DNA from: an uncultured virus (IMG/VR IMGVR_UViG_3300037991_001647)
Lineage: Duplodnaviria > Heunggongvirae > Uroviricota > Caudoviricetes
Length of the DNA: 20,000 nucleotides
Direction: 5' to 3' (one strand)
IMG/VR virus record: IMGVR_UViG_3300037991_001647
Span: 51,782-71,781 of that record
This document shows, piece by piece, positions 1 to 20,000 of this stretch. Position numbers and translations under genes: made by a program. The stretch's first letter is position 1. The number at the start of each line of letters is the position of its first letter. The notes beneath the pieces are model-generated. The model saw only the letters and a list, made by a program, of their open reading frames with translations. It was not told where the DNA came from and searched no databases.

Positions 1-159
1 TTTCACTATTTCGTCTTTTAATTTTAGTTTTTCGACTTTCATATTTTGAACGTCAGAATGTCTATTATACTCTTTTATTATCTCGTTGTCAAGATGCCTA
101 TGCACTTCTTTTAACTTTTGTAATCTTCTTGACTTTCCTCTTAGACCTGTTGCCATCAT
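1..159 (-). CDS. YdcH/DUF465-like small coiled-coil protein (runs off the window at its 3' end)
   Basis: Not in the ORF track. Manual translation: MMATGLRGKSRRLQKLKEVHRHLDNEIIKEYNRHSDVQNMKVEKLKLKDEIVK. The H..LD..I and K..KL.LKDEI pattern is typical of DUF465. AAGGAG SD upstream. Confidence 0.75.
   Translation of the reverse strand, partial: MMATGLRGKSRRLQKLKEVHRHLDNEIIKEYNRHSDVQNMKVEKLKLKDEIVK
64..92 (-). promoter_or_regulatory. Perfect sigma70 consensus promoter inside the DUF465-like ORF
   Basis: Minus strand TTGACA(92-87)-17 bp-TATAAT(69-64). Confidence 0.75.
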
Positions 160-219: not shown

Positions 220-1512
220 TTATGATACTACAAAGTATAGTATCGATACAGCCGCAATAGCAAGAGAACCTGCATTGAGTTCGCTATGTCTACCACTACA
301 AGCCTTAATTACAACGTGTGCAATAAAGCCTAATGCTATACCATATGCAATATTAAATGTTAGAGGCATAATAATTGCCGCCAATACTGCTGGTGCATAT
401 TCACTTACATCATTCCAGTCAATATCTTTTAAGTTACGTAAGAAATACGTAGCAATAAAGACTAATGCTGGTGCAGTTGCATATGCAGGAATAGATTGTG
501 CCAATGGTGCTAATACCAAACACAATGCAAATAATACTGCTACTGTAACCGCAGTTAGTCCTGTTTTACCGCCTTCTTTGATACCAGCACCACTTTCAAT
601 ATATGATGTAGTGTTACTTGTACCAACTAAAGCACCTACTGTTGTTGCAGTTGAATCTGCTAATAAGGCTCTATCAATTCCTTCAACTTCGCCTTTTTTA
701 TTGACTTTACCTGTTAAGTTAGCAACACTTGTTAGTGTTCCTGCCGTATCAAAAAAGTCAACAAATAAGAATGCAAAAGCAACTCCGATAAATCCAGCAG
801 TTGCAATCATACTAAAATCTAATGTAAATGCGTGTGATGGATTCGGTACTGAACCTACTACACCATTTAAATCAGCAATTCCTGTTACCCAAGCAATAAT
901 AGATACTGCTAAGATACCAATAATAATTGCACCTGGAATCTGTCTTTTATCAGCGATAGCCATTATAGCAAAACCAAGTCCTGCTAATAGAACAGGCCAA
1001 CTAGAAATATCACCAAGACCAACTAATGTTGCCGGGTTATCTACTACAACTCCTGCATTTTTCAAACCAATAATAGCAAGAAACAAACCGATACCTGCGC
1101 CGATACCTAGTTTCATTCCTTTTGGAATACTATTAATGATGTATCTTCGTGCTGGAGTTAAACTTAAACCAAGAAACACAATACCTGCGATAAACACAGC
1201 CGCCAGTGCTTGTTGATATGTGTACCCCATTCCAAAAATAACACCGAATGCAAAAAAGGCATTCAATCCCATTCCTGGTGCTAGACCTACAGGCCAATTA
1301 GCCCATAGTCCCATAATGAGAGTACCAATTACTGCCGCAATAATTGTTGCAGTAAACACGGCACCGAAATCCATTCCAGTACCTTCAGTTGACAAAATCG
1401 CAGGGTTTACCACTGTGATATATGCCATTGTAAGGAATGTCGCAAGACCGGCCATTACTTCCGTTCTGACCGTTGTTTTCTTCTTAGACAAACCAAATAG
1501 TTTTTCTAACAT
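220..1512 (-). CDS. NCS2 family nucleobase permease, AzgA/GhxP-type (guanine/hypoxanthine/adenine)
   Basis: 430 aa polytopic membrane protein with motifs TEVMAGLATFLTMAYI.VNP.IL, LAPGMGLNAFF, DFFDTAGTL, TTSYIESGAGI.EGG.TGLTA and MPLTFNIA.GI. AGGAGGA SD at 1519-1525. Confidence 0.95.
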   Translation of the reverse strand: MLEKLFGLSKKKTTVRTEVMAGLATFLTMAYITVVNPAILSTEGTGMDFGAVFTATIIAAVIGTLIMGLWANWPVGLAPGMGLNAFFAFGVIFGMGYTYQQALAAVFIAGIVFLGLSLTPARRYIINSIPKGMKLGIGAGIGLFLAIIGLKNAGVVVDNPATLVGLGDISSWPVLLAGLGFAIMAIADKRQIPGAIIIGILAVSIIAWVTGIADLNGVVGSVPNPSHAFTLDFSMIATAGFIGVAFAFLFVDFFDTAGTLTSVANLTGKVNKKGEVEGIDRALLADSTATTVGALVGTSNTTSYIESGAGIKEGGKTGLTAVTVAVLFALCLVLAPLAQSIPAYATAPALVFIATYFLRNLKDIDWNDVSEYAPAVLAAIIMPLTFNIAYGIALGFIAHVVIKACSGRHSELNAGSLAIAAVSILYFVVS

Positions 1513-1535: not shown

Positions 1536-3077
1536 TTAACCAAAAAGATCCGAGACAGTATCAGGTGTAGAATATTCTTTCTTTTTACCTTTTACCGCCT
1601 CGGTAAATTCTTCAGTTCTTACATTTGCTTCCTCAAACTCCATAAAGTCCGGAGTAGTGGAAATGTTTTGGACACGTGAACCTTCACATTTTCTTAAGAA
1701 TGCTTTAAAGTCAGTTAACATATCCATTGGATTATCTGATACAAATAGTTCCTCTACAAACTTTGCAAAGTATAATACTGTATCAGGTACAACATCACTT
1801 AACACATTTGTTTTACCTAAAGTTATGTTGTGTATATCGATTTTATCACGTAACATTTCATATTCGTGGTCAAATCTTCTTAATGCATCTTGCATACCAC
1901 GTATATGATATTCTGTATTATGTGCTTGAATCAATATGTACGATAAACTATCCCAACTTGATTTTGCTTCCTTCTTGTTCCTATTCAACATACCTGGTTG
2001 CATATAGTTGATATCACGCATATTAAGTCGTGAACCAATTGCTCCATCGTACATCCAAGGTTGATTCGGATTAGAAATATCTTGTCTCCAATTCAACTTT
2101 TTAGTTTTATAAGACCAAGCACCGGCACTCAAGTCAGGATAGTCATATGCTAGTCCTTTAGATGCAGTGATATAGGGAGAAGCCGCATCAAAGGAAATTG
2201 TGATGTTCGGATTTACACGTTCTCTAAGTTGTCTTTGTATGGCTGTCAAATAACAACCCCAAGGGAGAACACTAATGCCTAAAACGTGTATCCAAACATC
2301 GTCACCTGCTAATAGACCATCATCACGCATACGTATTAATCGTCTTAGCAAGAGTTCTGCATCACCGGCGTGGTCACCTGCCATCGCATATCCTTCGAAT
2401 GCTCTGTCGCCATATACTTTTGGATCGTTAAATTCTTTAACGTTTTGATACCACTTTTCACTAGTTTCCCAATTAGCACCGTGAAGTGTATTAAGAAATT
2501 TAGTTTTGCCAGGGATACGATTATCTATAAAAAACTTATGATTAAATATTGTTTTCTCTAAACAATCATCAGGACTTTTTAATCCTGTTCTATCACGATA
2601 CTGTGGAAGATATGCCCATAAAGGAATATCAAGTGTCATACTATAATCACAATATTCCTCTAACCAAGTCATAATTCCACAACGTGTCTTTTGCCAATCA
2701 GCACCATTTTCGAAATTACTCCAGTCAAGTTTCCAAGCACCACTACCAATTTGATAGCCTCCCGAATCACCAACTAATACTGTATTTTCTCTGTTACGAT
2801 TAACAACCATACCATCATCTTGTTTAGTACCATCTAAATCAAGATTGGCGTGACCGGCTGAATAAAGCCCGTGTGAGTAATACACATAGCCTTTATCCTT
2901 ATCAAATATATTCAGTCCTTCAAGTCCGTGTTCAAACTTCTTTGGAATACGTTCTGGTGGGAACATATCTGTCTTGTCCGCATAATGTTGTGAGATTTTA
3001 CGAACATAGAAATTTGAAATAGCAGGCAAAAATATAGCATAGCCTGAACTTAGATTATTCTTACCTAAGTCTATCAC
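1536..3077 (-). CDS. tRNA-guanine transglycosylase (TGT)/DpdA-like base-exchange enzyme
   Basis: 513 aa with DSGGYQ, MTLDIP, HVLG, SFDAASP and a late HN motif in TGT order. Lacks the CxCxxC zinc motif of bacterial tRNA TGT. GTG start just after the clamp stop. Confidence 0.8.
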   Translation of the reverse strand: MIDLGKNNLSSGYAIFLPAISNFYVRKISQHYADKTDMFPPERIPKKFEHGLEGLNIFDKDKGYVYYSHGLYSAGHANLDLDGTKQDDGMVVNRNRENTVLVGDSGGYQIGSGAWKLDWSNFENGADWQKTRCGIMTWLEEYCDYSMTLDIPLWAYLPQYRDRTGLKSPDDCLEKTIFNHKFFIDNRIPGKTKFLNTLHGANWETSEKWYQNVKEFNDPKVYGDRAFEGYAMAGDHAGDAELLLRRLIRMRDDGLLAGDDVWIHVLGISVLPWGCYLTAIQRQLRERVNPNITISFDAASPYITASKGLAYDYPDLSAGAWSYKTKKLNWRQDISNPNQPWMYDGAIGSRLNMRDINYMQPGMLNRNKKEAKSSWDSLSYILIQAHNTEYHIRGMQDALRRFDHEYEMLRDKIDIHNITLGKTNVLSDVVPDTVLYFAKFVEELFVSDNPMDMLTDFKAFLRKCEGSRVQNISTTPDFMEFEEANVRTEEFTEAVKGKKKEYSTPDTVSDLFG

Positions 3078-3080
3078 TTA

Positions 3081-3836
3081 CTAACTGCCTGATTTTGCTG
3101 GAAGAATGTATTCGTATAGACCTAATCCACTGTCTACTTGAATCATCATTGCACCTTGGTCTGACATTTTAACACTCATTGTGCTAGTATCACCAAGTTT
3201 CAAGATTGTCAAAACAGTTGCTAGAGGAAAACTCCAACCTGTTTTTAACTCACCACTGACGTTATGTGCAAAAGGAAGTTCTACTCTATCAGTAGACCTG
3301 TCACCAATAAAGAATTTTAGTGTACCATCTACTGTCTTTACAGTAAACAACGGATCGAAAGCACCTAAAATACTTGAAAAGTATTGTAAGTCTTTGATTG
3401 CTTTTTGTGTTGGCATAACTTCAACGTCCCACTTAGCACCTTTAAAGTTTGCCGTTTTGATTTGTGCATCAACTAACTCTGAAACAATTACACGATAAGT
3501 TGATTGCATTGCACCAGGAATTTCAAATGAAAGTTGTGTTGGAACTTTCTCACCATTACGTTCTTCGTGAACGACTTCAACTGATGCTTTAACTGATTTA
3601 CCCTCTTTATCTTCACCTTCGTAGTTCAGATAACCATTTAATACCCCAAGTCTACCTAGACCGAATTTACCTTGAAACTCTGGTACTGGTTTATGAAGTT
3701 TGCCTCGCAATACTACAGTTCTGTCATCATCCATAGCATCTATAGATGTGCCATTTTCATCTGTAGTTACTTTTGCCGCTTGGATAATACCTAATGAATG
3801 AGTATGCTTTACAATATCTTTTAATATATCTTGCAT
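3081..3836 (-). CDS. DNA polymerase sliding clamp (gp45/PCNA-like processivity factor)
   Basis: 251 aa, typical clamp size. Alternating helix/strand pattern (IDAMDDDRTVVL, GKFGL..L..L, C-terminal YEYILPA). Located in the PolB cluster. AAGGAG SD. Confidence 0.7.
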   Translation of the reverse strand: MQDILKDIVKHTHSLGIIQAAKVTTDENGTSIDAMDDDRTVVLRGKLHKPVPEFQGKFGLGRLGVLNGYLNYEGEDKEGKSVKASVEVVHEERNGEKVPTQLSFEIPGAMQSTYRVIVSELVDAQIKTANFKGAKWDVEVMPTQKAIKDLQYFSSILGAFDPLFTVKTVDGTLKFFIGDRSTDRVELPFAHNVSGELKTGWSFPLATVLTILKLGDTSTMSVKMSDQGAMMIQVDSGLGLYEYILPAKSGS

Positions 3837-3866: not shown

Positions 3867-3895
3867 ATACTATCAGTTTTCAATACCAATGTCAA
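3867..3895 (-). promoter_or_regulatory. sigma70-type promoter for clamp-TGT-permease genes
   Basis: TTGACA(3895-3890)-17 bp-TAGTAT(3872-3867), about 30 nt upstream of the clamp ATG. Confidence 0.65.
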
Positions 3896-4424
3896 TGCTT
3901 TTTTTCTTTCTTCCTGATACTGGATTGTCTACCCAATGTATCTGATTAGGAGGCATAAAACCCCATATAAACCAAGCATTTCCAAATGTAGGTGCACCTT
4001 TTCCAGTAAAATCAATACGATTGTTATACACAAGTGCGGACATTCCTTTGTCCATAAACATCTGTCCTCGCTTTAATCCCTGAAAACTTGTCACAGGAAG
4101 TAACAAAGCAAATGGTTTACCTAGTGAATAACAATGTTCTAAAAACTGATCCTTCTTACTATATGGTGGATTGGTTATAACACCATCAAAGATATCAGAC
4201 CGTCCACAATCAAAAAAATCCCTAGAACCAGACCCAACCATATTATAGCCGTGTTTGGTAAATCCTCTAAGAATGCTTGAACTTTTTCCGCTAGTCGCCT
4301 CATAGTAAGTTTTCTCCTTATCTAAGTATTTCAGTAAAGGTATGATTTGATCCTCAGGAGTGTAACACTCGTCTGACTCAGTATTCGTTGCTCTACGATT
4401 TATTAAGTCCGTATAAGTGTTCAC
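3873..4424 (-). CDS. Small N6-adenine (amino) DNA methyltransferase
   Basis: 183 aa. DECYTP, degenerate SAM-binding motif I (YYEATSG), catalytic ITNPPYS, and GKPFALLLP. GTG start overlaps the upstream TGA. Confidence 0.82.
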   Translation of the reverse strand: MNTYTDLINRRATNTESDECYTPEDQIIPLLKYLDKEKTYYEATSGKSSSILRGFTKHGYNMVGSGSRDFFDCGRSDIFDGVITNPPYSKKDQFLEHCYSLGKPFALLLPVTSFQGLKRGQMFMDKGMSALVYNNRIDFTGKGAPTFGNAWFIWGFMPPNQIHWVDNPVSGRKKKSIDIGIEN

Positions 4425-5474: not shown

Positions 5475-8267
5475 TTAAAAATCAAATAAGTTAGTAAAAG
5501 TTTCTGATGCATTTGCATCACTCAAATCCCATTTAAGAACACCTATTAAGTTTTGTAGTTTCTTATCAATAATTGTTGCTTCCATTTCTTCATCATCAAA
5601 TGGGAGTTCTTGAAACCACTGAGGAATTCTAGTTTCATCAATAGGATATGCCACACTAGTCATCTTCATATTGTTAGGTCTTAGTTTACAAACAATAGTT
5701 TTCATACCATCAACAATCTCTAATGCATACTTGTCTTGATGTAATTCTCTTAACAAGTTCCAATTGATTGCCGCCGATACGTGACCAGGCAAATGCACTT
5801 TATCTTTTTTACCTTCTTCTTCGCCTTCTAGTTTGAATTCTCTACTTTGTGACTTAGCAAGTTTACTAAGTTTATTTCTATACATTGTAATATTATTAAC
5901 ACGTTTAGGAGTACCTTTCTCCCAACCAGGCTTTGCTCTGAATTCTTTCTTAAACTCTTTGACCATATCAATAACATCTTCTTGTGTACCATCTGTTAGA
6001 ATTTTAACAAGAACATCACTTAAAAAGTTTTGCATATAGTCTGGAGTATCACTTCTTTTCAAGTCAAGACCCATTGCTTTAACCTTACCAGGTTTACCAT
6101 CTACATCTTTTCTTACACCTTCATCATCATAGATTAACATTGCGTATCTTTTCTTTTTGATAAAGATTGCCATAGATGCCGCATTCTCTCGACCTGCTAC
6201 AATAATCTCTCCTTGTTTACGAGGACAATTAAAGAAGTCTTTCATAAAGTCAGGGAAACTTGTGTTGACTTGATTTGCTACTTCGTCATACAGTTCTACT
6301 ACTCTTTCTTTTGACCATTCAATTTCACCAGCATCAATCTCTTTTTTGTATACAGGATACATTGAATAATAGATACTATCTGTATCTCCATATATAACTG
6401 CAGGACCTTTATAATCATATGTTCCTTCAATTACTTCGTTTGTTTTAGAACCCATATGTCTTGTAATACAACGACCAGTTAGTGTTGTACTTTGACCAAT
6501 ACGTTTATCATAGAAACGACAACCAGGATTTAAAATCGCACCATATAGTGAATTCAAGTTAATCTTTTTAACAAGTTGTCTTTTATCCCAGAATGCGATT
6601 TGTTCTTTATCGCCTTCTTCAATCGCTTTCTTTTTGTTTGCTTGTAATACTTTTCTTTCAGCATACCAACGTTCTAACAAACTTGGAATGATACCTTGTA
6701 CATCTTGTCTGAATACTGTACCATTGGCACTGATTGCCCAATCTAAATCTTTACTGAATACTAAATTATATAATTCAGCACCAGTCATATCTGCTTTTTC
6801 TCCAGTCTCTAGTAACAGATTAATCTTTTCAGTTTTATCTTTTTCATTCATCAATCTAAATTCTTCTGCACTAAACGTATCTTCCCAAGCCTGAGCCGCT
6901 CCGAAACCTTTACTTCCACCTCGTCTACCATTTGCAATTCTATCACCAATCAATTTATCTGTATGTGTTGGTTCTAGTTGTGCAACAATAGTTTCGGGAC
7001 TCATATTTAATGCACGAATAACTGAAGGATAAAGTGAATTGATATCAATACCTGCTACCCATCTTTGTATACCTGTCTTTGGATTTGCAACAAAGGCACC
7101 TGCCGCCTTTTGCTTTTCTGCTTCTTCTAGTTCTTCATCTGTTGGTTCTGAATCTTCTTCTCCCCAATCTTTCGCTTTTCTATCTGGCACAACCATCTTT
7201 CTACGATGTGCCTCATTTATAATTGCTTGTTCTGTAACTGCAACTGCACCCATAGTTGTTTTGATATTAACTGTATTGTCGTGTGCAATCTCATTTGCTA
7301 AATCAATGAATTGTAATTTTTTATCTAAGTTGCCTAATAGTGCAACGTCTTGTCTGTTATATTCGATAAACTTATAAAAGTCTTTGTTGTATAAAGTATC
7401 TAATGTTCCTTCATACGCAATTTTCTTTTCACCTAATTCATATTCACCAATAGTATCTAGTGAGTATGAATGCATTTCGTGATATGTATACTTACGATAT
7501 AGTTCAAGATAGTCAAGATGAATACGACCTGATAAGTCATATGTCACACTTTCTTTACCAAATCTAACTACACGCCTTTCGTGAGGAAGTAGATCCCATA
7601 AACAAAGTTTACGTGTATGAGACTTACTCATAATATTTGTAATACGTCTAACTGTATATGGAATATCGAAACCCTCTGAGTTCCAACCAGATAATACATC
7701 TGCATCATCAATCAATGCAATGAAATCGTTTAACATATCTACTTCACTAAGATAGATAAACGTATCATCAAATCTACTTGCTAGTTCTTCTGCCTCTTTA
7801 AGACCTTCACCTTCACGCATATGTTTTGGCGGGATAGCAAACGTAACAAGTTTATCTACCCATTGCAAATAAACTGTGATTGCAGTAATAGGCATAAAAG
7901 GATCCTCTGGAGGAGCAAAGCCTCTGTCTGCATCAAAGTCTACTTCGATATCAAAAAATGCACAATGAAGTTTCGGAGAGTCAACTCCGTTATAGTTTTC
8001 ACTTAAACATCTTACTTCAGGTTTGATATCACTTTCGTAAAACTTTTTACCTGAGTTTATTCGTCTTTCTTTGTGAAGGTCTTTGAGTCTTTTACATTTG
8101 ATTTGACGTACTTTATCACCGTGTATACTTGTATGCTCTCCTCTTGGATCCTTTATATAAAAAGTTCTCCAAGCAGGAAAGTCATTGTATACACGTTTAC
8201 CATTAATTCGTTCAACTACTTGAACGATATCTTTTTCTTTGTTATAAAATGCGTCAACATAACTCAT
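5475..8267 (-). CDS. polB: Family B DNA polymerase with 3'-5' exonuclease (gp43-like)
   Basis: ExoI FFDIEV, ExoII GWNSEGFDIPY, ExoIII YNRQDV. Motif A DINSLYPS, motif B KINLNSLYG, motif C YGDTDS. C-terminal NLFDF clamp-binding-like tail. Confidence 0.98.
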   Translation of the reverse strand: MSYVDAFYNKEKDIVQVVERINGKRVYNDFPAWRTFYIKDPRGEHTSIHGDKVRQIKCKRLKDLHKERRINSGKKFYESDIKPEVRCLSENYNGVDSPKLHCAFFDIEVDFDADRGFAPPEDPFMPITAITVYLQWVDKLVTFAIPPKHMREGEGLKEAEELASRFDDTFIYLSEVDMLNDFIALIDDADVLSGWNSEGFDIPYTVRRITNIMSKSHTRKLCLWDLLPHERRVVRFGKESVTYDLSGRIHLDYLELYRKYTYHEMHSYSLDTIGEYELGEKKIAYEGTLDTLYNKDFYKFIEYNRQDVALLGNLDKKLQFIDLANEIAHDNTVNIKTTMGAVAVTEQAIINEAHRRKMVVPDRKAKDWGEEDSEPTDEELEEAEKQKAAGAFVANPKTGIQRWVAGIDINSLYPSVIRALNMSPETIVAQLEPTHTDKLIGDRIANGRRGGSKGFGAAQAWEDTFSAEEFRLMNEKDKTEKINLLLETGEKADMTGAELYNLVFSKDLDWAISANGTVFRQDVQGIIPSLLERWYAERKVLQANKKKAIEEGDKEQIAFWDKRQLVKKINLNSLYGAILNPGCRFYDKRIGQSTTLTGRCITRHMGSKTNEVIEGTYDYKGPAVIYGDTDSIYYSMYPVYKKEIDAGEIEWSKERVVELYDEVANQVNTSFPDFMKDFFNCPRKQGEIIVAGRENAASMAIFIKKKRYAMLIYDDEGVRKDVDGKPGKVKAMGLDLKRSDTPDYMQNFLSDVLVKILTDGTQEDVIDMVKEFKKEFRAKPGWEKGTPKRVNNITMYRNKLSKLAKSQSREFKLEGEEEGKKDKVHLPGHVSAAINWNLLRELHQDKYALEIVDGMKTIVCKLRPNNMKMTSVAYPIDETRIPQWFQELPFDDEEMEATIIDKKLQNLIGVLKWDLSDANASETFTNLFDF

Positions 8268-10805: not shown

Positions 10806-12146
10806 TTAGATTTTATCCCACTTGGAAACAATGTTTTCGCCATCTTCTATTAATTCGTGATAATGTGGGAAATGTTCAGCAAAAGATATCTTTCTTCTAT
10901 CTTCTAATTTCTTGAATTGTATCCAGGCCTCGCCTTTAATATTAGGGTCTACAGGACTTTCTACAATAGATTTCATAGTTTCCATAAGTGACATATACTT
11001 TTCTTTTTGATACATATCTACTTCCATAGAGTTTAAGAAGTCTATTTGTTCGTCTATTGCTTTTGCGTGATGAGGTTCCAATGCTGATACAGATAAATGA
11101 GCAGGATTATCTACCCAATTACTGTGCATATGTATCTTATTTTTATAATTATGTAGTTTTAATTTATCATCAAGATATATTAAAAAATCTTTAAAATAAG
11201 GCAAACTTAAACTGTTATGGGCACAACCAAATCCAACTAATAGATTAGGTAATTCTTTCCCCTTTTCAAAAAACAAGTCTAAGTTTTTATCCCAAGTATC
11301 CCATATTAATCCCCACCTTATAATTTCACTACGTTTTCCTATGGCCTCACCTGATATTTGCATATCATATATTATGTTTGGAGTTCTTTTAACAAGTTCT
11401 ATGAACCTATCAAACTTATGTCTTGGAAAATTCATATTAGTAGTAACTGTTATTACTACCTTTTGCTCTGACTTAGGATCCATCTTATCATTTATGTTTA
11501 CCATAAATTCTTCAATAAACTTATACATATGTTCAGTAAAGAATGGTTCTCCGCCTAATAGACTAAAGTTAACGTGTTCTCTATCTTTTAAAGAATGATC
11601 CCAATATGAATTCAATATCTTAATAACTTTATCAAATATCAAATCTTCTGTATCAGGAAATCTTTGACCTAATTCTTTTTGCCATCTTGTGCTAGACCCA
11701 CCCCAACAATAAACACAAGCCATATTACATTTGTTTGTTAATTCTATTTCAATGAATTTCATATTATCAAATCTTCTCATCTTTTGATGAAAAGCAATTC
11801 TTTTTTTAGGGTGTTGTAAACTTTTTCTTAAATCCCTTTTCATATGAAAATCATAATTTTTTGTGTATTCAGTTCTTACACTACGTCCACCTGCATCTTC
11901 TGATTTCCAACAGAAAGTACAATCTTCACTACGTGTACCACCACTAAGTTCCCATTTTCTTCTTTGTAGCACAGGGTGATTAAAAAGAAAATCTTCTGTT
12001 AAGGTATCCAATGTAAATGTTGTTGCATCTTCATCTTTTTTATTCATTACAGTTTTACAACACCATTTTACATTTTTACGAGGTAAAGNNNNNNNNNNTT
12101 GTTCTAAGTAGTGTACTCGTGGATTAATGTTTTCGATGTTTGGCAT
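10806..12146 (-). CDS. Radical SAM protein with N-terminal SPASM/twitch-like Cys region; spans an assembly gap
   Basis: CNMACVYC (CxxxCxxC), LLGGEPF, VTTN. N-terminal WCCK and CTFCWKSE. TAATG-coupled to the 1425-aa gene. Confidence 0.88.
   Translation of the reverse strand: MPNIENINPRVHYLEQXXXXLPRKNVKWCCKTVMNKKDEDATTFTLDTLTEDFLFNHPVLQRRKWELSGGTRSEDCTFCWKSEDAGGRSVRTEYTKNYDFHMKRDLRKSLQHPKKRIAFHQKMRRFDNMKFIEIELTNKCNMACVYCWGGSSTRWQKELGQRFPDTEDLIFDKVIKILNSYWDHSLKDREHVNFSLLGGEPFFTEHMYKFIEEFMVNINDKMDPKSEQKVVITVTTNMNFPRHKFDRFIELVKRTPNIIYDMQISGEAIGKRSEIIRWGLIWDTWDKNLDLFFEKGKELPNLLVGFGCAHNSLSLPYFKDFLIYLDDKLKLHNYKNKIHMHSNWVDNPAHLSVSALEPHHAKAIDEQIDFLNSMEVDMYQKEKYMSLMETMKSIVESPVDPNIKGEAWIQFKKLEDRRKISFAEHFPHYHELIEDGENIVSKWDKI
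12089..12098. other. Assembly gap (10 N)
   Basis: Run of N near the 5' end of the radical SAM gene. Confidence 0.99.
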
Positions 12147-15100
12147 TACTTCTTTTTAGTCCTCAGTAGTTTCTTTGGAAACCCATCTTTATCTACATCA
12201 TTACCAAACTTCTTCGCTTGTTTGATAATTTCATTGGGTCCTACATCTACTGAGGTATTTATGCCTGGTATAACACGACCTACTCCGGCCGCTTCCTTAA
12301 CTTCATTTGTTAAAATACTTTTTAGTTGATTAATAGTATCGTTAGTTGTTGACGTATGATGTTTAATAGCAACACCACCTGCTTGTTTCCAAGCATTTAC
12401 GTTTTTACCATAGTCATCAATTAAGATGTTTGGTGTACCATCAGGTTGTTTAGCATATTGAGATTTATTATGGTCAATAATAACTTTCTCAGGTTTAAAG
12501 AAACCCAAATGTTTATTAACCCATTCACGTTTGCCTGGATCAACATTAGGATCGTTAGCAAGAGGTGAACTTAAAATTTTATATGAACCGTGCATTTGTT
12601 TTATAGCAGTTAATAATTCTTTATAACCTGCTAAAGGAGGTAGATTTTCCCAGAAGTTAGGAGTATCTACAATCTTCTTTAATGCTTTTGGTATTTCTCT
12701 TTTTGGTATATCTCTATAAGTTTTGACGTTCATAAGTTTAGCCCATTCTGTAAAGAAGTCAACTAATACTCCGTCCATATCTACAAACACTTCTGATTTA
12801 GATTCTTCTGCCTCTGTCATCTCTGCTTGAGGTATACTAGGTCCACCTGATGATTTAGTTTGTTTCTTTGTCTTATTACCAAACTTATCTTTTACATAAT
12901 TGTATGCACCTATAGCCGCACCACCGCCTGATGTACCTGCACCTGCAATTTTATAAGCAGGATCTGTCATTAACTTACTTGCTATCTTTGGTCCATATGT
13001 TCTTGCTAAATGGGCCGCACCTTGTATTGCTGGATATATCCATTCTTTCACATCTGATTTTGCAAATGCTCCCATATAATCAGGTATCTTTGTTTTAACC
13101 CAAGGACCTCTGTGCATAAATCTTGCACTCATCATAACATTTGTACCAAAGTATTCTTCTGGTCTCATTATCATTACTTGATATTGTCTCTTTTCATTAT
13201 CAACACCTACAACTTCTACTTCCATTTCATCGTGTTTCTTACCTTTGTAAGTGATGCCGTGACCTGTCATAAATCTTGAAACTTTTTCTAATACAATACT
13301 TTCTTGTACTGGTACTTTCTTTAGTAAATCTTCTTTACTTAATTTGTAATTAGATTTCATCCATTGGTCTTGTAAGTCTGTTAGTAACTGACCAAGTTGT
13401 GGTCCTGCTCTATATCCCATTGCAAGTAAATCTTTGCCATTTACTGGAAACTCAGGCTTTTCAAAAGAATGCACTGTATCATAAACATCATTCTTATTAT
13501 GCATATTTGCCCAAGCAAGTAAATGGTCTTGTGATACACCTTTAACAAGCATATCTTTTGCTTGTTTTGGATTAATGTTTTGACCTTTATGTTTAATTAA
13601 AAAGTCAAGCATTTCTGTATCATATTTACTCATCTTCCATTCTCTTGCAATATTACTATTGTCTAATAATATAGCAAGTGAAATAATAGGACCTGCAGGT
13701 TCACCTAACTTAGATGGTTTGATACCACCTAATCCAATCATTTGATTGACACCTGTTTTATTCATCCATTCAAGTGATTCTTCTGCATTAGTAGACATTA
13801 AAAGTTTTGACATTTCTTGCCAAATTCTTTCAACTGATAATCCTTTTATGCCTTGTACATTATCTTTGATAGCATTCAAAGTATCTTCATCCCATTTTGG
13901 ATTATCTAATTTAGATTGAAATCTAAAGTATCTTAAAATTCTTAAGTAATCTTCTTTAATTCTTTCTGCAGGATCTCCTACAAACTTTGAAACTTTATCT
14001 TGTAAGTCGTCCATACCACCATTGTAATCATAGATGTTACCATCAATATCCATTGACATTGCATTGTAAGTTAAGTCTCTACGTTTAGCATCTTCTTCCC
14101 AACTACGAACAAACTCAACTTCTGCCCTTCTACCATCAGTTTCTTTGTCTGCACGTAGAGTTGTTATTTCAAATGGTTCATCATCAATAACGGCAGTAAT
14201 TGTTCCGTGTTCTATTCCTGTAGGAACAGTTTTTACTTTTGCTTTATCAAGCATATTCATCATTTCATCTGGTGTAGCATCTGTGGCAAAATCAATATCT
14301 TTAGGTTCTTTACCTAAAGCAATATCTCTTACTGCACCACCAACAATTCTTACTTCGTAATCATTGTCTTTGAATATCTTATCTAATTTTTTAATAGCAG
14401 GAGTAATAATTGGTTTTATGTTTATTGATTCTTCATTAATGCTTTCTTTTTTCTTTCTACCTGCACAATGAGCCTTTTGTGAAAAGCCTTTTGGATTTGA
14501 GCAATTAATACTTTTCTTATATTTGTTACTCCACTTTTCAAATATATCACCTTCAAATAATTCGTTACCATATAATCCTAAATACTCTTGCTCAAGTTCA
14601 CGCCAGTTAATTTTGTCATTTGTTTGCATTGCCAACATCATTGCATAGTAACCAAGTGAATGTCTAAGTTTACCATTAGTTTCTTTATACTTTCTTTTAA
14701 GTATTTTATGCATCATTTGTGCCATATTGATATATGCTTTTTTGTTTATTGCGTGTCCTAACTTACGAGCAACTACACCAAATGGTGTTTCTTCATTTAC
14801 TTGTTTTTCAAATTTCCAAGACTTAACTTTATTTGGAAGAATAACTCCACGTGGTGCTGATAGTTTATTAACATCTAAATCATCGCCCCACCATACACCA
14901 TCAAGTCCTAATGTTTCTGCATATAAAGGTAATACATATTCTAGTACACCAGTTGCTTCAATTCTACTTTGACCTGTTGCTTTCTTTAATTTGTCAGTAG
15001 GAACAATACCACCTTTGTCTATATCAACATCATAGTCTTCTAATTCATCGCCGTGTTCTGCTTTCGCATCAGCCATTGAATTAAATGTTTGACTAAGAGT

Positions 15101-16423
15101 ATCATCCATTTCGTCATCATACCAACTTACTGTAACAGTTTCCTGTTGCTCAAGAAATCCATTATCAATAGCCCATTGTTTGATTTGATTGTTTTGTTGT
15201 GATGTAAGTTTATGTGTATCTAAAAATGTATTGTTTTGTTTTGTTGCAGTATATGTATCGCCTGAAACTTGTCCTCTAGCAATACGTCTCCAAGCATCAG
15301 GTTCTGTACTAACACTTAACCCGTTTCCTTCATAACTAAAGTCACCTTTTTTACTTGCATCTAAGGTACCTACGTGATATAAATCTTTTAAAGATATTGT
15401 AGGAAACTTTGTTTCTTCATTTACTTGTTCACACTTACAAGGTTCAGCATAGCATTTACCACACACCCATTCATTTACAACTGATTTTAATTCATCTGGT
15501 AATAAAGCAATCGCTTGTTTTCTTAAATTCTGATTACCCTTTGTCATAACTCTTAATAAGTCTGCCTTTTCTGCGTGATATACTTTAGCAAACTTAGGAT
15601 CATTTTGTGCGATATCTTTACCATTGCTTATCAAGTCTGCATACTTAACTGTTTGTGCCTCTGCACTAACACCTGCTAGTTTGTCTCTATCGATTGCTTT
15701 ACGTGTTTTTCTATTACCATCTTCTGGTTTACTTACATCTGTAAGTTCAACAACTAGTTTAGCAATCTTAGGACCAAACTCTCTTGTTATGTCCATAGGT
15801 GTAGTATTTGTATCTTCAACTGTATCGTGTAATAAAGCCGCCGCCTGTTGTTCTATAGTACCGCCTGCTTGTTTTACTATATTTCTAACTTCATCTAAAT
15901 GAACATAATACGGATCACCAGTATACTTTCTCTTGTGGTCTTTATGAGCCTCTTGTGCAAACTTTTCTGCTTTTGCTATTATATCCATTTCTTCATTTTC
16001 TGTGTATATGTCTTTGAAGTATACACGAGGAAATTTTAATGTCAATGATAATAATTCGTTTCCGTCAACATTTGCACGTAATATTCTAACTGGATCACCA
16101 GAATTTAAAGCGGCCAACCATCTATGATGACCATCAATAATATAATCATCACTACTTGCTAGTAATGGTTTAGGATTTAGACCTTCGCCTTTTTCTTTAT
16201 TCTTGTTTAATTGTTTTGTAACACCCTGGTCAGAAAATTCTTTCTGCATAGGTTTTAAGTCTTTTGCTTGTACGATTTCAGGTTTTAGATTGACACCATT
16301 ATCTTTTAGATATGATTTGTATTCTGGATAGTCTAATTCTTTCACTTGAGGCATCTTATCTCTTGCGATACCCATAGTGTCTGAAGCCTTAGGCTTTACA
16401 ATTTTGAACTCCTCGAGTTTCAT
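12146..16423 (-). CDS. Multidomain polyvalent protein: ParB/Srx-like + SpoT/Mesh1-type HD hydrolase + ART-like + CCA-adding tRNA nucleotidyltransferase + HAD 5'(3')-nucleotidase
   Basis: IIDGHHRW (about 16120-16140). AHKDHKRKYTGDPY..H, ALLHDTVEDT, VKYADLISN (about 15490-15988). LYHVG..G.GLSVST..GLDGVWW (about 14806-15412). VGGAVRD/DIDFAT/EITTLR/RRDLTYNAM/EDYLRILR/SVERI (about 13310-14428). VFVDMDGVLVDF/ILIDDY (about 12315-12790). Confidence 0.9.
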   Translation of the reverse strand: MKLEEFKIVKPKASDTMGIARDKMPQVKELDYPEYKSYLKDNGVNLKPEIVQAKDLKPMQKEFSDQGVTKQLNKNKEKGEGLNPKPLLASSDDYIIDGHHRWLAALNSGDPVRILRANVDGNELLSLTLKFPRVYFKDIYTENEEMDIIAKAEKFAQEAHKDHKRKYTGDPYYVHLDEVRNIVKQAGGTIEQQAAALLHDTVEDTNTTPMDITREFGPKIAKLVVELTDVSKPEDGNRKTRKAIDRDKLAGVSAEAQTVKYADLISNGKDIAQNDPKFAKVYHAEKADLLRVMTKGNQNLRKQAIALLPDELKSVVNEWVCGKCYAEPCKCEQVNEETKFPTISLKDLYHVGTLDASKKGDFSYEGNGLSVSTEPDAWRRIARGQVSGDTYTATKQNNTFLDTHKLTSQQNNQIKQWAIDNGFLEQQETVTVSWYDDEMDDTLSQTFNSMADAKAEHGDELEDYDVDIDKGGIVPTDKLKKATGQSRIEATGVLEYVLPLYAETLGLDGVWWGDDLDVNKLSAPRGVILPNKVKSWKFEKQVNEETPFGVVARKLGHAINKKAYINMAQMMHKILKRKYKETNGKLRHSLGYYAMMLAMQTNDKINWRELEQEYLGLYGNELFEGDIFEKWSNKYKKSINCSNPKGFSQKAHCAGRKKKESINEESINIKPIITPAIKKLDKIFKDNDYEVRIVGGAVRDIALGKEPKDIDFATDATPDEMMNMLDKAKVKTVPTGIEHGTITAVIDDEPFEITTLRADKETDGRRAEVEFVRSWEEDAKRRDLTYNAMSMDIDGNIYDYNGGMDDLQDKVSKFVGDPAERIKEDYLRILRYFRFQSKLDNPKWDEDTLNAIKDNVQGIKGLSVERIWQEMSKLLMSTNAEESLEWMNKTGVNQMIGLGGIKPSKLGEPAGPIISLAILLDNSNIAREWKMSKYDTEMLDFLIKHKGQNINPKQAKDMLVKGVSQDHLLAWANMHNKNDVYDTVHSFEKPEFPVNGKDLLAMGYRAGPQLGQLLTDLQDQWMKSNYKLSKEDLLKKVPVQESIVLEKVSRFMTGHGITYKGKKHDEMEVEVVGVDNEKRQYQVMIMRPEEYFGTNVMMSARFMHRGPWVKTKIPDYMGAFAKSDVKEWIYPAIQGAAHLARTYGPKIASKLMTDPAYKIAGAGTSGGGAAIGAYNYVKDKFGNKTKKQTKSSGGPSIPQAEMTEAEESKSEVFVDMDGVLVDFFTEWAKLMNVKTYRDIPKREIPKALKKIVDTPNFWENLPPLAGYKELLTAIKQMHGSYKILSSPLANDPNVDPGKREWVNKHLGFFKPEKVIIDHNKSQYAKQPDGTPNILIDDYGKNVNAWKQAGGVAIKHHTSTTNDTINQLKSILTNEVKEAAGVGRVIPGINTSVDVGPNEIIKQAKKFGNDVDKDGFPKKLLRTKKK
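14786..14805. repeat. 20-bp exact direct repeat, copy 1
   Basis: TGTTTCTTCATTTACTTGTT; the minus strand encodes QVNEET. Confidence 0.95.
15410..15429. repeat. 20-bp exact direct repeat, copy 2
   Basis: Identical to 14786-14805. Spacing is 624 bp = 208 codons. Confidence 0.95.
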
Positions 16424-19617: not shown

Positions 19618-19851
19618 TTATGAAAAAAGTGGTTGAAATGTTGAGAACACTTTATTATAAGCATTCACTTCATATTGATAAGGCTCAAAGAATTCATCAT
19701 CATCCTCAGAACCAGAATTACAGTGGTCTTCCCAGGCAGAGTTCATTAACTCCATACCTTTAAGAAGGTCACCAGAACCAAAGTTAGAAATAATACCTTT
19801 TGAGTCTTCAAAAGACAATTCCATTTCGAAAAAACTAGGGATACGAAACAT
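19618..19851 (-). CDS. Hypothetical acidic protein (77 aa)
   Basis: GAGAGG SD and a sigma70 promoter directly upstream. Confidence 0.75.
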   Translation of the reverse strand: MFRIPSFFEMELSFEDSKGIISNFGSGDLLKGMELMNSAWEDHCNSGSEDDDEFFEPYQYEVNAYNKVFSTFQPLFS

Positions 19852-19881: not shown

Positions 19882-19912
19882 ATTATAATAGCACGATTCG
19901 TGAATCTGTCAA
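19882..19912 (-). promoter_or_regulatory. Early/sigma70-type promoter
   Basis: TTGACA(19912-19907)-16 bp-TATTAT with extended TGn (TGcTATTATAAT). The spacer holds GATTC-AC-GAATC. Confidence 0.7.
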
Positions 19913-19916
19913 GTTT

Positions 19917-20000
19917 TTAGTCGAATAAATGTGAGAATTGAGCCGTCATTTTTGTAAACATTACAGGGTCTTTTTCTACTAATATTGCTTTTCTATTTAA
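19917..20000 (-). CDS. 3' end of a probable N6/N4 DNA methyltransferase
   Basis: Manual translation: LNRKAILVEKDPVMFTKMTAQFSHLFD*. The LNR..I..E.D pattern matches the C-terminus of beta-class amino-MTases. Only 27 aa are visible. Confidence 0.55.
   Translation of the reverse strand, partial: LNRKAILVEKDPVMFTKMTAQFSHLFD

Follow-up and report, generated by a model that had tools for sequence, protein, structure and literature searches.

A putative sliding-clamp peptide on a large DpdA-type transglycosylase encoded beside the clamp gene of an uncultured virus

The C-terminal sequence of gp43 of bacteriophage T4 is SLDFLF. In T4 and RB69, gp43, gp55 and gp33 reach the gp45 clamp through epitopes that consist of a hydrophobic-acidic end peptide on an unstructured linker (passages of PMC2988020 and PMC9690074), and the T4 epitopes are interchangeable and also function when placed internally (PMC2988020). 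A similar arrangement is suggested by a 20,000-nucleotide stretch of an uncultured virus, here taken as a marine jumbo phage (IMG/VR record IMGVR_UViG_3300037991_001647, positions 51,782 to 71,781; hereafter the window); the stretch forms the end of a 71.8-kb viral contig (G000). The window encodes a large DpdA-type transglycosylase of the PA5oct type (513 amino acids, positions 1536..3077; all window features described here lie on the minus strand), a putative guanine/7-deazaguanine exchange enzyme of DNA by its tRNA-guanine transglycosylase (TGT) fold, invariant aspartates and orthology, and this enzyme terminates in the putative clamp-binding peptide VSDLFG* (1536..1556). The reading favored here, with a probability of roughly 65%, is that the enzyme is a client of the PCNA-fold clamp encoded by the phage itself. 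The likeness to T4 and RB69 extends to the use of a phage clamp and to a peptide common to a polymerase and a non-polymerase client; however, the client is a base-exchange enzyme rather than a transcription factor, the clamp is the PCNA-like protein that PA5oct-type jumbo phages encode, the motif sits at the very end in some lineages and further inside in others, and its binding is putative. Nor does the T4 LDFL consensus (PMC9690074, in part) fit, as the pattern of the DpdA family is F-x-x-L-F-[DES], the window enzyme reads VSDLFG and its polymerase reads FTNLFDF.

The nearest described chemistry is the DpdA3/DpdL system for 2'-deoxy-7-deazaguanosine (dDG) of Cellulophaga phage phiST (passages of Cui et al. 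2023, PMC10516641), with which this locus and its relatives share FolE, QueD, QueE, DpdL, a TGT-fold enzyme and the lack of QueC. The enzyme of the window differs in its length (513 versus 259 amino acids) and in its tail, which the phiST enzyme lacks. The passages of Cui et al. treat insertion as post-replicative and make no mention of a clamp. Among cellular systems, PCNA-recruited Dnmt1 and MUTYH and mycobacterial Nei2 on the beta clamp (passages of PMC9690074) are alike in that a clamp peptide brings an enzyme that works at the level of bases to newly replicated DNA. Those enzymes serve cellular maintenance or repair and use a PCNA-interacting protein (PIP) box or a beta-clamp consensus, whereas the system considered here would serve viral counter-defence on a viral clamp.

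The closest cultured relatives of the window polymerase, clamp and transglycosylase are PA5oct/Paride-like and other jumbo phages, and a complete 342.6-kb relative (G001) encodes the enzyme at 93% identity. The end of the window is present in 20 of 24 runs listed, of which 18 are labelled marine or seawater metagenome. The original prediction, made from the sequence of the window, described four C-termini resembling one another, and all four are present: TVSDLFG* of the transglycosylase (1536-1559), TFTNLFDF* of the DNA polymerase PolB (5475-5501), QFSHLFD* (19917-19940) and FQPLFS* (19618-19638). It also presumed a sliding clamp, leaving the gene unnamed, and this clamp exists as a PCNA-fold protein of 251 amino acids (3081..3836; QCG76195.1 in PA5oct), whose gene stops 3 bp short of the DpdA start. 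Its structural model (predicted local distance difference test, pLDDT, 89.7) matches PCNA in Foldseek (E 3.5e-12, template modelling score, TM, 0.61-0.68), and a clamp loader (phrog_168) is encoded in G001, as seen in a family look-up that covered 123 of 275 listed proteins (120-900 amino acids). The clamp gene was found in 177 of the 188 loci with a complete DpdA and lies no more than 700 bp away in 168 of these 177. The family B DNA polymerase (PF00136, 5475..8267) supplies the reference peptide, and the conservation of its tail holds in full, with LF among the last five residues at all 118 complete polymerase ends (loci L001-L123).

At the C-terminus of the transglycosylase, conservation across 20 close rows of the alignment is confined to particular positions. 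More specifically, residue 508 is V or I, residue 511 is L or M and residue 512 is F in 20 of 20 rows each, while residues 503, 506, 507 and 509 vary; fixed hydrophobic positions of this kind within the last seven residues are what a short linear motif would show. The peptide follows a linker (residues 468-501, 1575..1676) that had been called charged and flexible. It is charged, the last 48 residues of the enzyme including 10 acidic and 6 basic ones, and it is predicted to be disordered (pLDDT below 50 at residues 468-495 and 497-501), but it is largely invariant across the 20 close rows and is hence no variable spacer. Among the homologues examined, the best 120 of 2748 found, a terminal [LM]F-x(1-2) occurs in all 5 with 79-93% identity and in 0 of the 115 with 43-47% identity, and one close homologue ends in the PolB-like SNMFDF. 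Distant relatives mostly possess an internal F-x-x-L-F located 21-35 residues before the end, which is closer to the PolB tail; one such motif reads NTFGSLFE versus NTFGSLFSFE in the PolB tail of the same phage. The tail is therefore conserved within the close clade, but more distant homologues mostly carry an internal copy instead. This internal FxxLF is found within the last 50 residues of 27 of 52 distant rows (alignment A1), with L at position 480 in 27 of 27, and the matching site of the window enzyme holds what appears to be a decayed motif, DFMEFE (1632..1649). A quick tree of 74 rows places the window clade on a long branch (0.81) inside a 32-row group that includes 20 internal-motif rows, and at least 7 changes of the terminal state are forced by well-supported branches. 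The simplest reading of these sequences is that the internal copy decayed and a terminal copy was gained, the order of events being presumed.

The family-wide frequency of the motif is well above background. The 114 representatives used for this comparison are the best 150 of 1063 (50% clustering) after removal of 36 shorter than 400 amino acids, and some of them may be cut at contig ends. A terminal [LMF]F is found in 24 of the 114, compared with 18 of 646 background proteins (Fisher p 6.5e-11), and shuffled tails gave a mean of 4.0 and a maximum of 12 (500 shuffles). Either pattern, terminal or internal, is present in 46 of 114 representatives versus 34 of 646 background proteins (shuffled mean 8.6, maximum 18; 200 shuffles). 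With a profile built on 35 distinct PolB tails, 83 of the 120 homologues, which are strongly related to each other, score above the 99th percentile of the background. A census of neighbouring genes (3254 distinct complete open reading frames, ORFs, in 199 loci; 44 families with at least 6 clusters at 70%) shows that the profile is passed only by PolB, in 13 of 17 clusters that were also the training set, and by DpdA in 11 of 20. No cluster passes in any of the other 42 families, among them the clamp, QueE, FolE and the glycosyltransferase.

These counts also bear on whether all of the resemblances are the product of chance in an AT-rich proteome rich in Phe, Leu and Asn. Bare LF-x endings, on which the original prediction leaned, do occur across the genomes at about chance level: [LM]F within the last five residues shows no enrichment in G001 (10 of 447 ORFs, 7.8 expected) or in a second relative, G002 (9 of 452, 7.1 expected), and the bare ending was therefore rejected as evidence. 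Chance of this kind probably explains the ending of a 77-residue ORF in the window and possibly that of a 27-residue fragment, both discussed below. As an account of the whole pattern, however, it is barely credible, since composition-preserving shuffles of the tails never attained the observed counts and no cluster of the 42 neighbouring families passes the profile. Only 4 of 237 orthologue pairs between G001 and G002 share an ending of this type, namely PolB, DpdA, a 167-residue protein and a 298-residue protein.

The DpdA motif also resembles the PolB tail of its own phage more than expected, with a score of 270 versus 228 +/- 20 for shuffled pairs (p 0.018; 16 clusters, no tree correction). 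In Vibrio 2.275.O, for example, the DpdA motif NNNDLFGW faces the PolB tail NNTDLFDW, and the PolB of locus L282 ends in VDDLFG, the same pattern as the DpdA tail of the window. The unrelated, cultured T4-like phage ACP17 provides a further case, in which the published DpdA2 (L293:2692-3966) ends in TLDELFE and gp43 in SLDDLFE. A shared peptide could instead bind another common partner of PolB and DpdA, such as a replisome protein, the host beta clamp, a protease or a chaperone. D-L-F does resemble the end of the bacterial QL[SD]LF motif, and in the sources consulted the binding of the PolB tail to the clamp in this particular phage group is itself an assumption. This explanation is nevertheless distinctly unlikely, considering that B-family phage polymerases bind clamps by C-terminal motifs (passages of PMC3201878 and PMC2988020), that the DpdA motif tracks the polymerase tail of its own phage and that clamp and dpdA are neighbours in nearly all of the loci counted above.

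Several observations weigh against the clamp as the docking site of this enzyme. Scored against the PolB profile, the DpdA tail of the window reaches only -0.5, a value matched by 8.2% of background proteins; the tail of this copy alone is within chance, whereas the family-wide pattern exceeds it. The window tail is weak by itself, and the case rests on the DpdA family. Within that family 68 of the 114 representatives have neither pattern; the motif-less ones are more often short (41 of 57 below 480 amino acids versus 27 of 57 longer ones). Looser motif patterns, picked after the data had been seen, are less exclusive, reaching 16 of 17 PolB and 15 of 20 DpdA clusters and then 4 of 9 and, twice, 2 of 6 clusters of other families. 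The DpdA proteins of loci L228 and L255 lack the motif though a clamp and a PolB tail are present, and the tail is found in none of the four short DpdA3 proteins of phiST, CP220, Ahp1_CNU-2021 and RHph_I1_18. Similar endings also occur on proteins that would be unlikely clients, one being gp26 of ACP17, the third such ending among 30 proteins read, and another the 298-residue protein of G001 and G002, for which there is a weak glycosyltransferase family 2 (GT2) lead (30% of one Atlas cluster). In G001, 9 proteins score at least 8 over their whole length, and the ligase and the RNase H-like protein are not among them. Finally, an older in vitro claim that the T4 alpha-glucosyltransferase acts with gp45 embodies the same idea of a phage DNA-modifying enzyme riding the clamp, but passages of a recent preprint (bioRxiv 10.64898/2025.12.06.692756) report that the interaction was not reproduced in vitro or in vivo with C-terminally His-tagged enzymes; thus no accepted phage example was found.

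The weakness of this copy may be explained differently. A DNA-acting DpdA may bind the clamp through its motif in many relatives, with the link weakened or lost in the clade of the window, where the terminal V-x-x-L-F would have another use (fold-back onto the barrel, an oligomer contact or stability) or would bind too weakly to matter. The low profile score and the long branch to this clade are as expected from such a loss, the structural model has a short helix at residues 508-512 (pLDDT about 54-60) and the adjacent methyltransferase is likewise tail-less in this subclade. Against this stand the fixation of the hydrophobic positions alone in all 20 close rows, the PolB-like SNMFDF ending of one close homologue and the recurrence of terminal placement across the quick tree. 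Loss of the link is thus considered unlikely, though a realistic alternative, and recruitment by the clamp is preferred in modified form: the clamp exists and a PolB-type peptide recurs across the DpdA family, but the motif of this copy is weak.

The tail-less enzymes are informative as to what the tail does not do. Guanine is fully replaced in phiST and CP220 (passages of Cui et al. 2023, PMC10516641) and the tail is absent from their DpdA3 proteins; it is therefore not needed for complete guanine replacement, was rejected as an explanation of it and cannot be its general answer. Tail-less DpdA proteins may belong to phages without a clamp; a search seeded with short representatives that lack the tail yielded mostly long loci with a linked clamp, and an alignment scan of the tail-bearing representatives gave no usable pattern. 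In Phosso (L042) and in locus L214 the DpdA gene precedes the primase and helicase, away from the clamp, with ends reading EGLF and SLFTI, respectively; the Phosso PolB ends in TFNDLFTF.

The identity of the enzyme itself is supported by structure and orthology. The transglycosylase is unnamed by sequence, with no Pfam or PHROG family and no real PDB sequence match. Its model matches tRNA-guanine transglycosylases (Foldseek E 2.7e-8; TM about 0.41 by query), and the description of the protein as TGT-like is thus borne out by fold but not by Pfam or PHROGs. The motif CxCxxC, the zinc site of bacterial tRNA-guanine transglycosylase, is present in 0 of the 114 representatives. Salmonella DpdA retains this site (passages of PMC10164549), so the site cannot separate DNA from tRNA enzymes. 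D104, D150 and D297 show no variation across 58 rows and, by their order and motif, would correspond to Asp95, Asp130 and Asp256 of Salmonella DpdA (PMC10164549). Data S1 of Cui et al. 2023 (PMC10516641) places the PA5oct orthologue QCG76197.1 (36.5% identity across 89%) under DpdA3. Published orthology and gene context together make DNA the most likely substrate, as was already predicted via the PA5oct orthologue. The original prediction had preferred DNA over tRNA because of the tail; the preference stands, but it follows from orthology and gene context and not from the tail.

An action on tRNA or another non-DNA target, as for the TGT-family protein Cap10 of a cyclic oligonucleotide-based antiphage signalling system (CBASS), would make the tail incidental. 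The top structural matches are indeed tRNA enzymes, GUN anticodons occur on tRNAs of relatives (for Asp in G001 and for Asp, Asn and His in G002) and a PolyA-polymerase/CCA-type domain is encoded in the window. On the other side, there is no PF01702 match for the enzyme, QueC is absent from all 3 related records, so that there is no preQ0/preQ1 route, a DpdL signature lies next door and the orthologue is listed as DpdA3. Moreover, PA5oct DNA resists five restriction enzymes, which the authors of that work attribute to modification of G within GA and/or GG (passages of PMC12191111). A non-DNA target is accordingly judged very unlikely.

Placement among the DpdA subfamilies is doubtful, and the name PA5oct-type large DpdA is used here. 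Assignment to DpdA3 proper was not accepted, as the profile link to the type members from phiST and CP220 fails: hhalign against their DpdA3 proteins, used as single-sequence templates, gave probabilities of 10.9 and 0.2, and the 114-sequence profile gave 8.9 bits for phiST DpdA3 and 1.9 for CP220 DpdA3 compared with 31.5 for ACP17 DpdA2. Data S1 of Cui et al. also files under DpdA3 the RHph_I1_18 protein (L292:9071-10339), which is annotated as DUF3310 and has no tail; the DpdA3 column of that data set may mix several families.

Among other candidate clients, the better methyltransferase case on sequence grounds is a small DNA adenine methyltransferase with an NPPY motif encoded between PolB and the clamp (3873..4424, phrog_799, E 1e-29). 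The window copy and its subclade lack a tail, and 11 of its 19 distinct relatives, all of one 70% cluster (for example L017:6678-7262), terminate in the PolB-like F-x-x-[LF]-F; the two subclades form a natural pair for gain or loss of the tail. The methyltransferase named in the original prediction was instead the gene cut by the contig end, of which the last 27 residues remain (19917..20000, ending QFSHLFD*), and this label was not confirmed. Neither Pfam nor PHROGs gives a match for the fragment at E<=10, and it has relatives in 0 of 5 related records and a single blast match at E 0.26; a match to it by DNA pattern proved to be a wrong-frame chance match, and contigs of four runs cover the fragment yet do not include sequence upstream of it. 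It may resemble the last helix of N6/N4 methyltransferases, in which case the peptide would lie in a folded helix and form no tail.

The 77-residue accessory ORF (19618..19851, ending FQPLFS*) was also proposed as a client. It is found in 51 related loci and is absent from G001 and G002, and its 14 distinct ends shown read mostly M-x-x-L-F-[AS] inside a longer conserved block; the ending is probably due to chance and the ORF is not counted as a clamp client. For both of these proposed clients the only support is the PolB-profile score, 14.8 for the 27-residue ORF (reached by 0.2% of the background) and 10.8 for the 77-residue ORF (0.4%). The 77-residue ORF sits behind a promoter-like repeat that acts as a cassette junction. 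This 36-bp element (19882-19917), TTGACA ... TATAAT with an inner inverted repeat, is present in 2 copies in G000 and 6 in G001, with none in G002 at 7 or fewer mismatches; contigs of four runs share it with flanks that differ on both sides, as at the junction of an exchangeable cassette. The 298-residue protein (L140:16343-17239 in G001, and its G002 orthologue) ends in AFGSLFD and KNALFSF, respectively, and is the second-best terminal profile match in G001; it is possibly a further DNA-acting clamp client.

The neighbouring genes are consistent with 7-deazaguanine synthesis. Genes for QueE-like, FolE, glycosyltransferase, phosphoribosyltransferase (PRTase) and DpdL-like proteins lie just outside the window (contig 48017-51762) in one run with DpdA, and a small ORF at 1..159 leads into this cluster. 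Pfam matches on the G001 orthologues are PF00156, PF00534 (weak) and PF01227, the T-fold protein next door carries the DpdL signature LxxxHRHxF, read as LGYPHRHIF, and QueD is located elsewhere in G001. The glycosyltransferase adjoins DpdL in the PA5oct, Phosso and ACP17 regions as well, hinting at a sugar-bearing deazaguanine. Directly downstream of DpdA, an accessory NCS2 nucleobase permease (220..1512, PF00860) could import purine bases; it separates dpdA from the deazaguanine genes in 8 of 40 close loci and is present in 0 of 80 distant ones, and the PHROGs label of its family, 'tail protein', is probably wrong. Elsewhere in the window, a 1425-residue protein (12146-16423) with HD, PolyA-polymerase/CCA-type and NT5C domains separated by Glu-rich spacers may be a packaged tRNA-repair polyprotein. 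ARAGORN reports a tRNA with a CTA anticodon in the G002 tRNA cluster near 132737-132811, which may be an amber suppressor or a miscall.

A mechanism can be proposed from these observations and the literature. FolE, QueD and QueE, the genes for which are seen, would make 7-carboxy-7-deazaguanine (CDG), with DpdL as the proposed decarboxylase. The TIM barrel of the transglycosylase, to judge from its fold, invariant aspartates and orthology, would swap guanine in phage DNA for 7-deazaguanine. The hydrophobic-x-x-L-F on the disordered tail would then dock where the polymerase tail is expected to bind the clamp and hold the enzyme on clamp-loaded, new phage DNA, which may raise both its local concentration and its selectivity for phage DNA. 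In the clade of the window, a weaker terminal peptide would have replaced the decayed, older internal copy. The tail is thus envisaged as a recruiting aid that is not required for DpdA chemistry. Riding the clamp need not equal travel with the fork, as in T4 the clamp additionally serves late transcription as a platform that tracks along DNA (passages of PMC2988020 and PMC9690074).

A broader proposal, advanced tentatively and with somewhat less than even odds, is that unrelated large lytic phages, both PA5oct-like and T4-like, share a portable, polymerase-tuned clamp peptide that loads DNA-modifying enzymes (several DpdA subfamilies and adenine methyltransferases) and that has been repeatedly moved, gained and lost. 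Insertion of 7-deazaguanine would in that case follow the fork and shield new DNA before host nucleases reach it. Among the literature matches listed, in a search with subscription journals mostly outside its coverage, no titles or abstract beginnings link DpdA to a sliding clamp, and the passages on phage 7-deazaguanine insertion do not explain how the enzyme locates phage DNA or leaves host DNA unmodified. If this broader proposal is correct, it would give phages their first accepted example of DNA modification coupled to a clamp, and it could partly explain the failure of some DpdA enzymes expressed alone in E. coli. The clamp peptide is testable in the cultured phages PA5oct, Paride and ACP17, and the finding suggests co-expression of the clamp and its loader for reconstitution of these enzymes.

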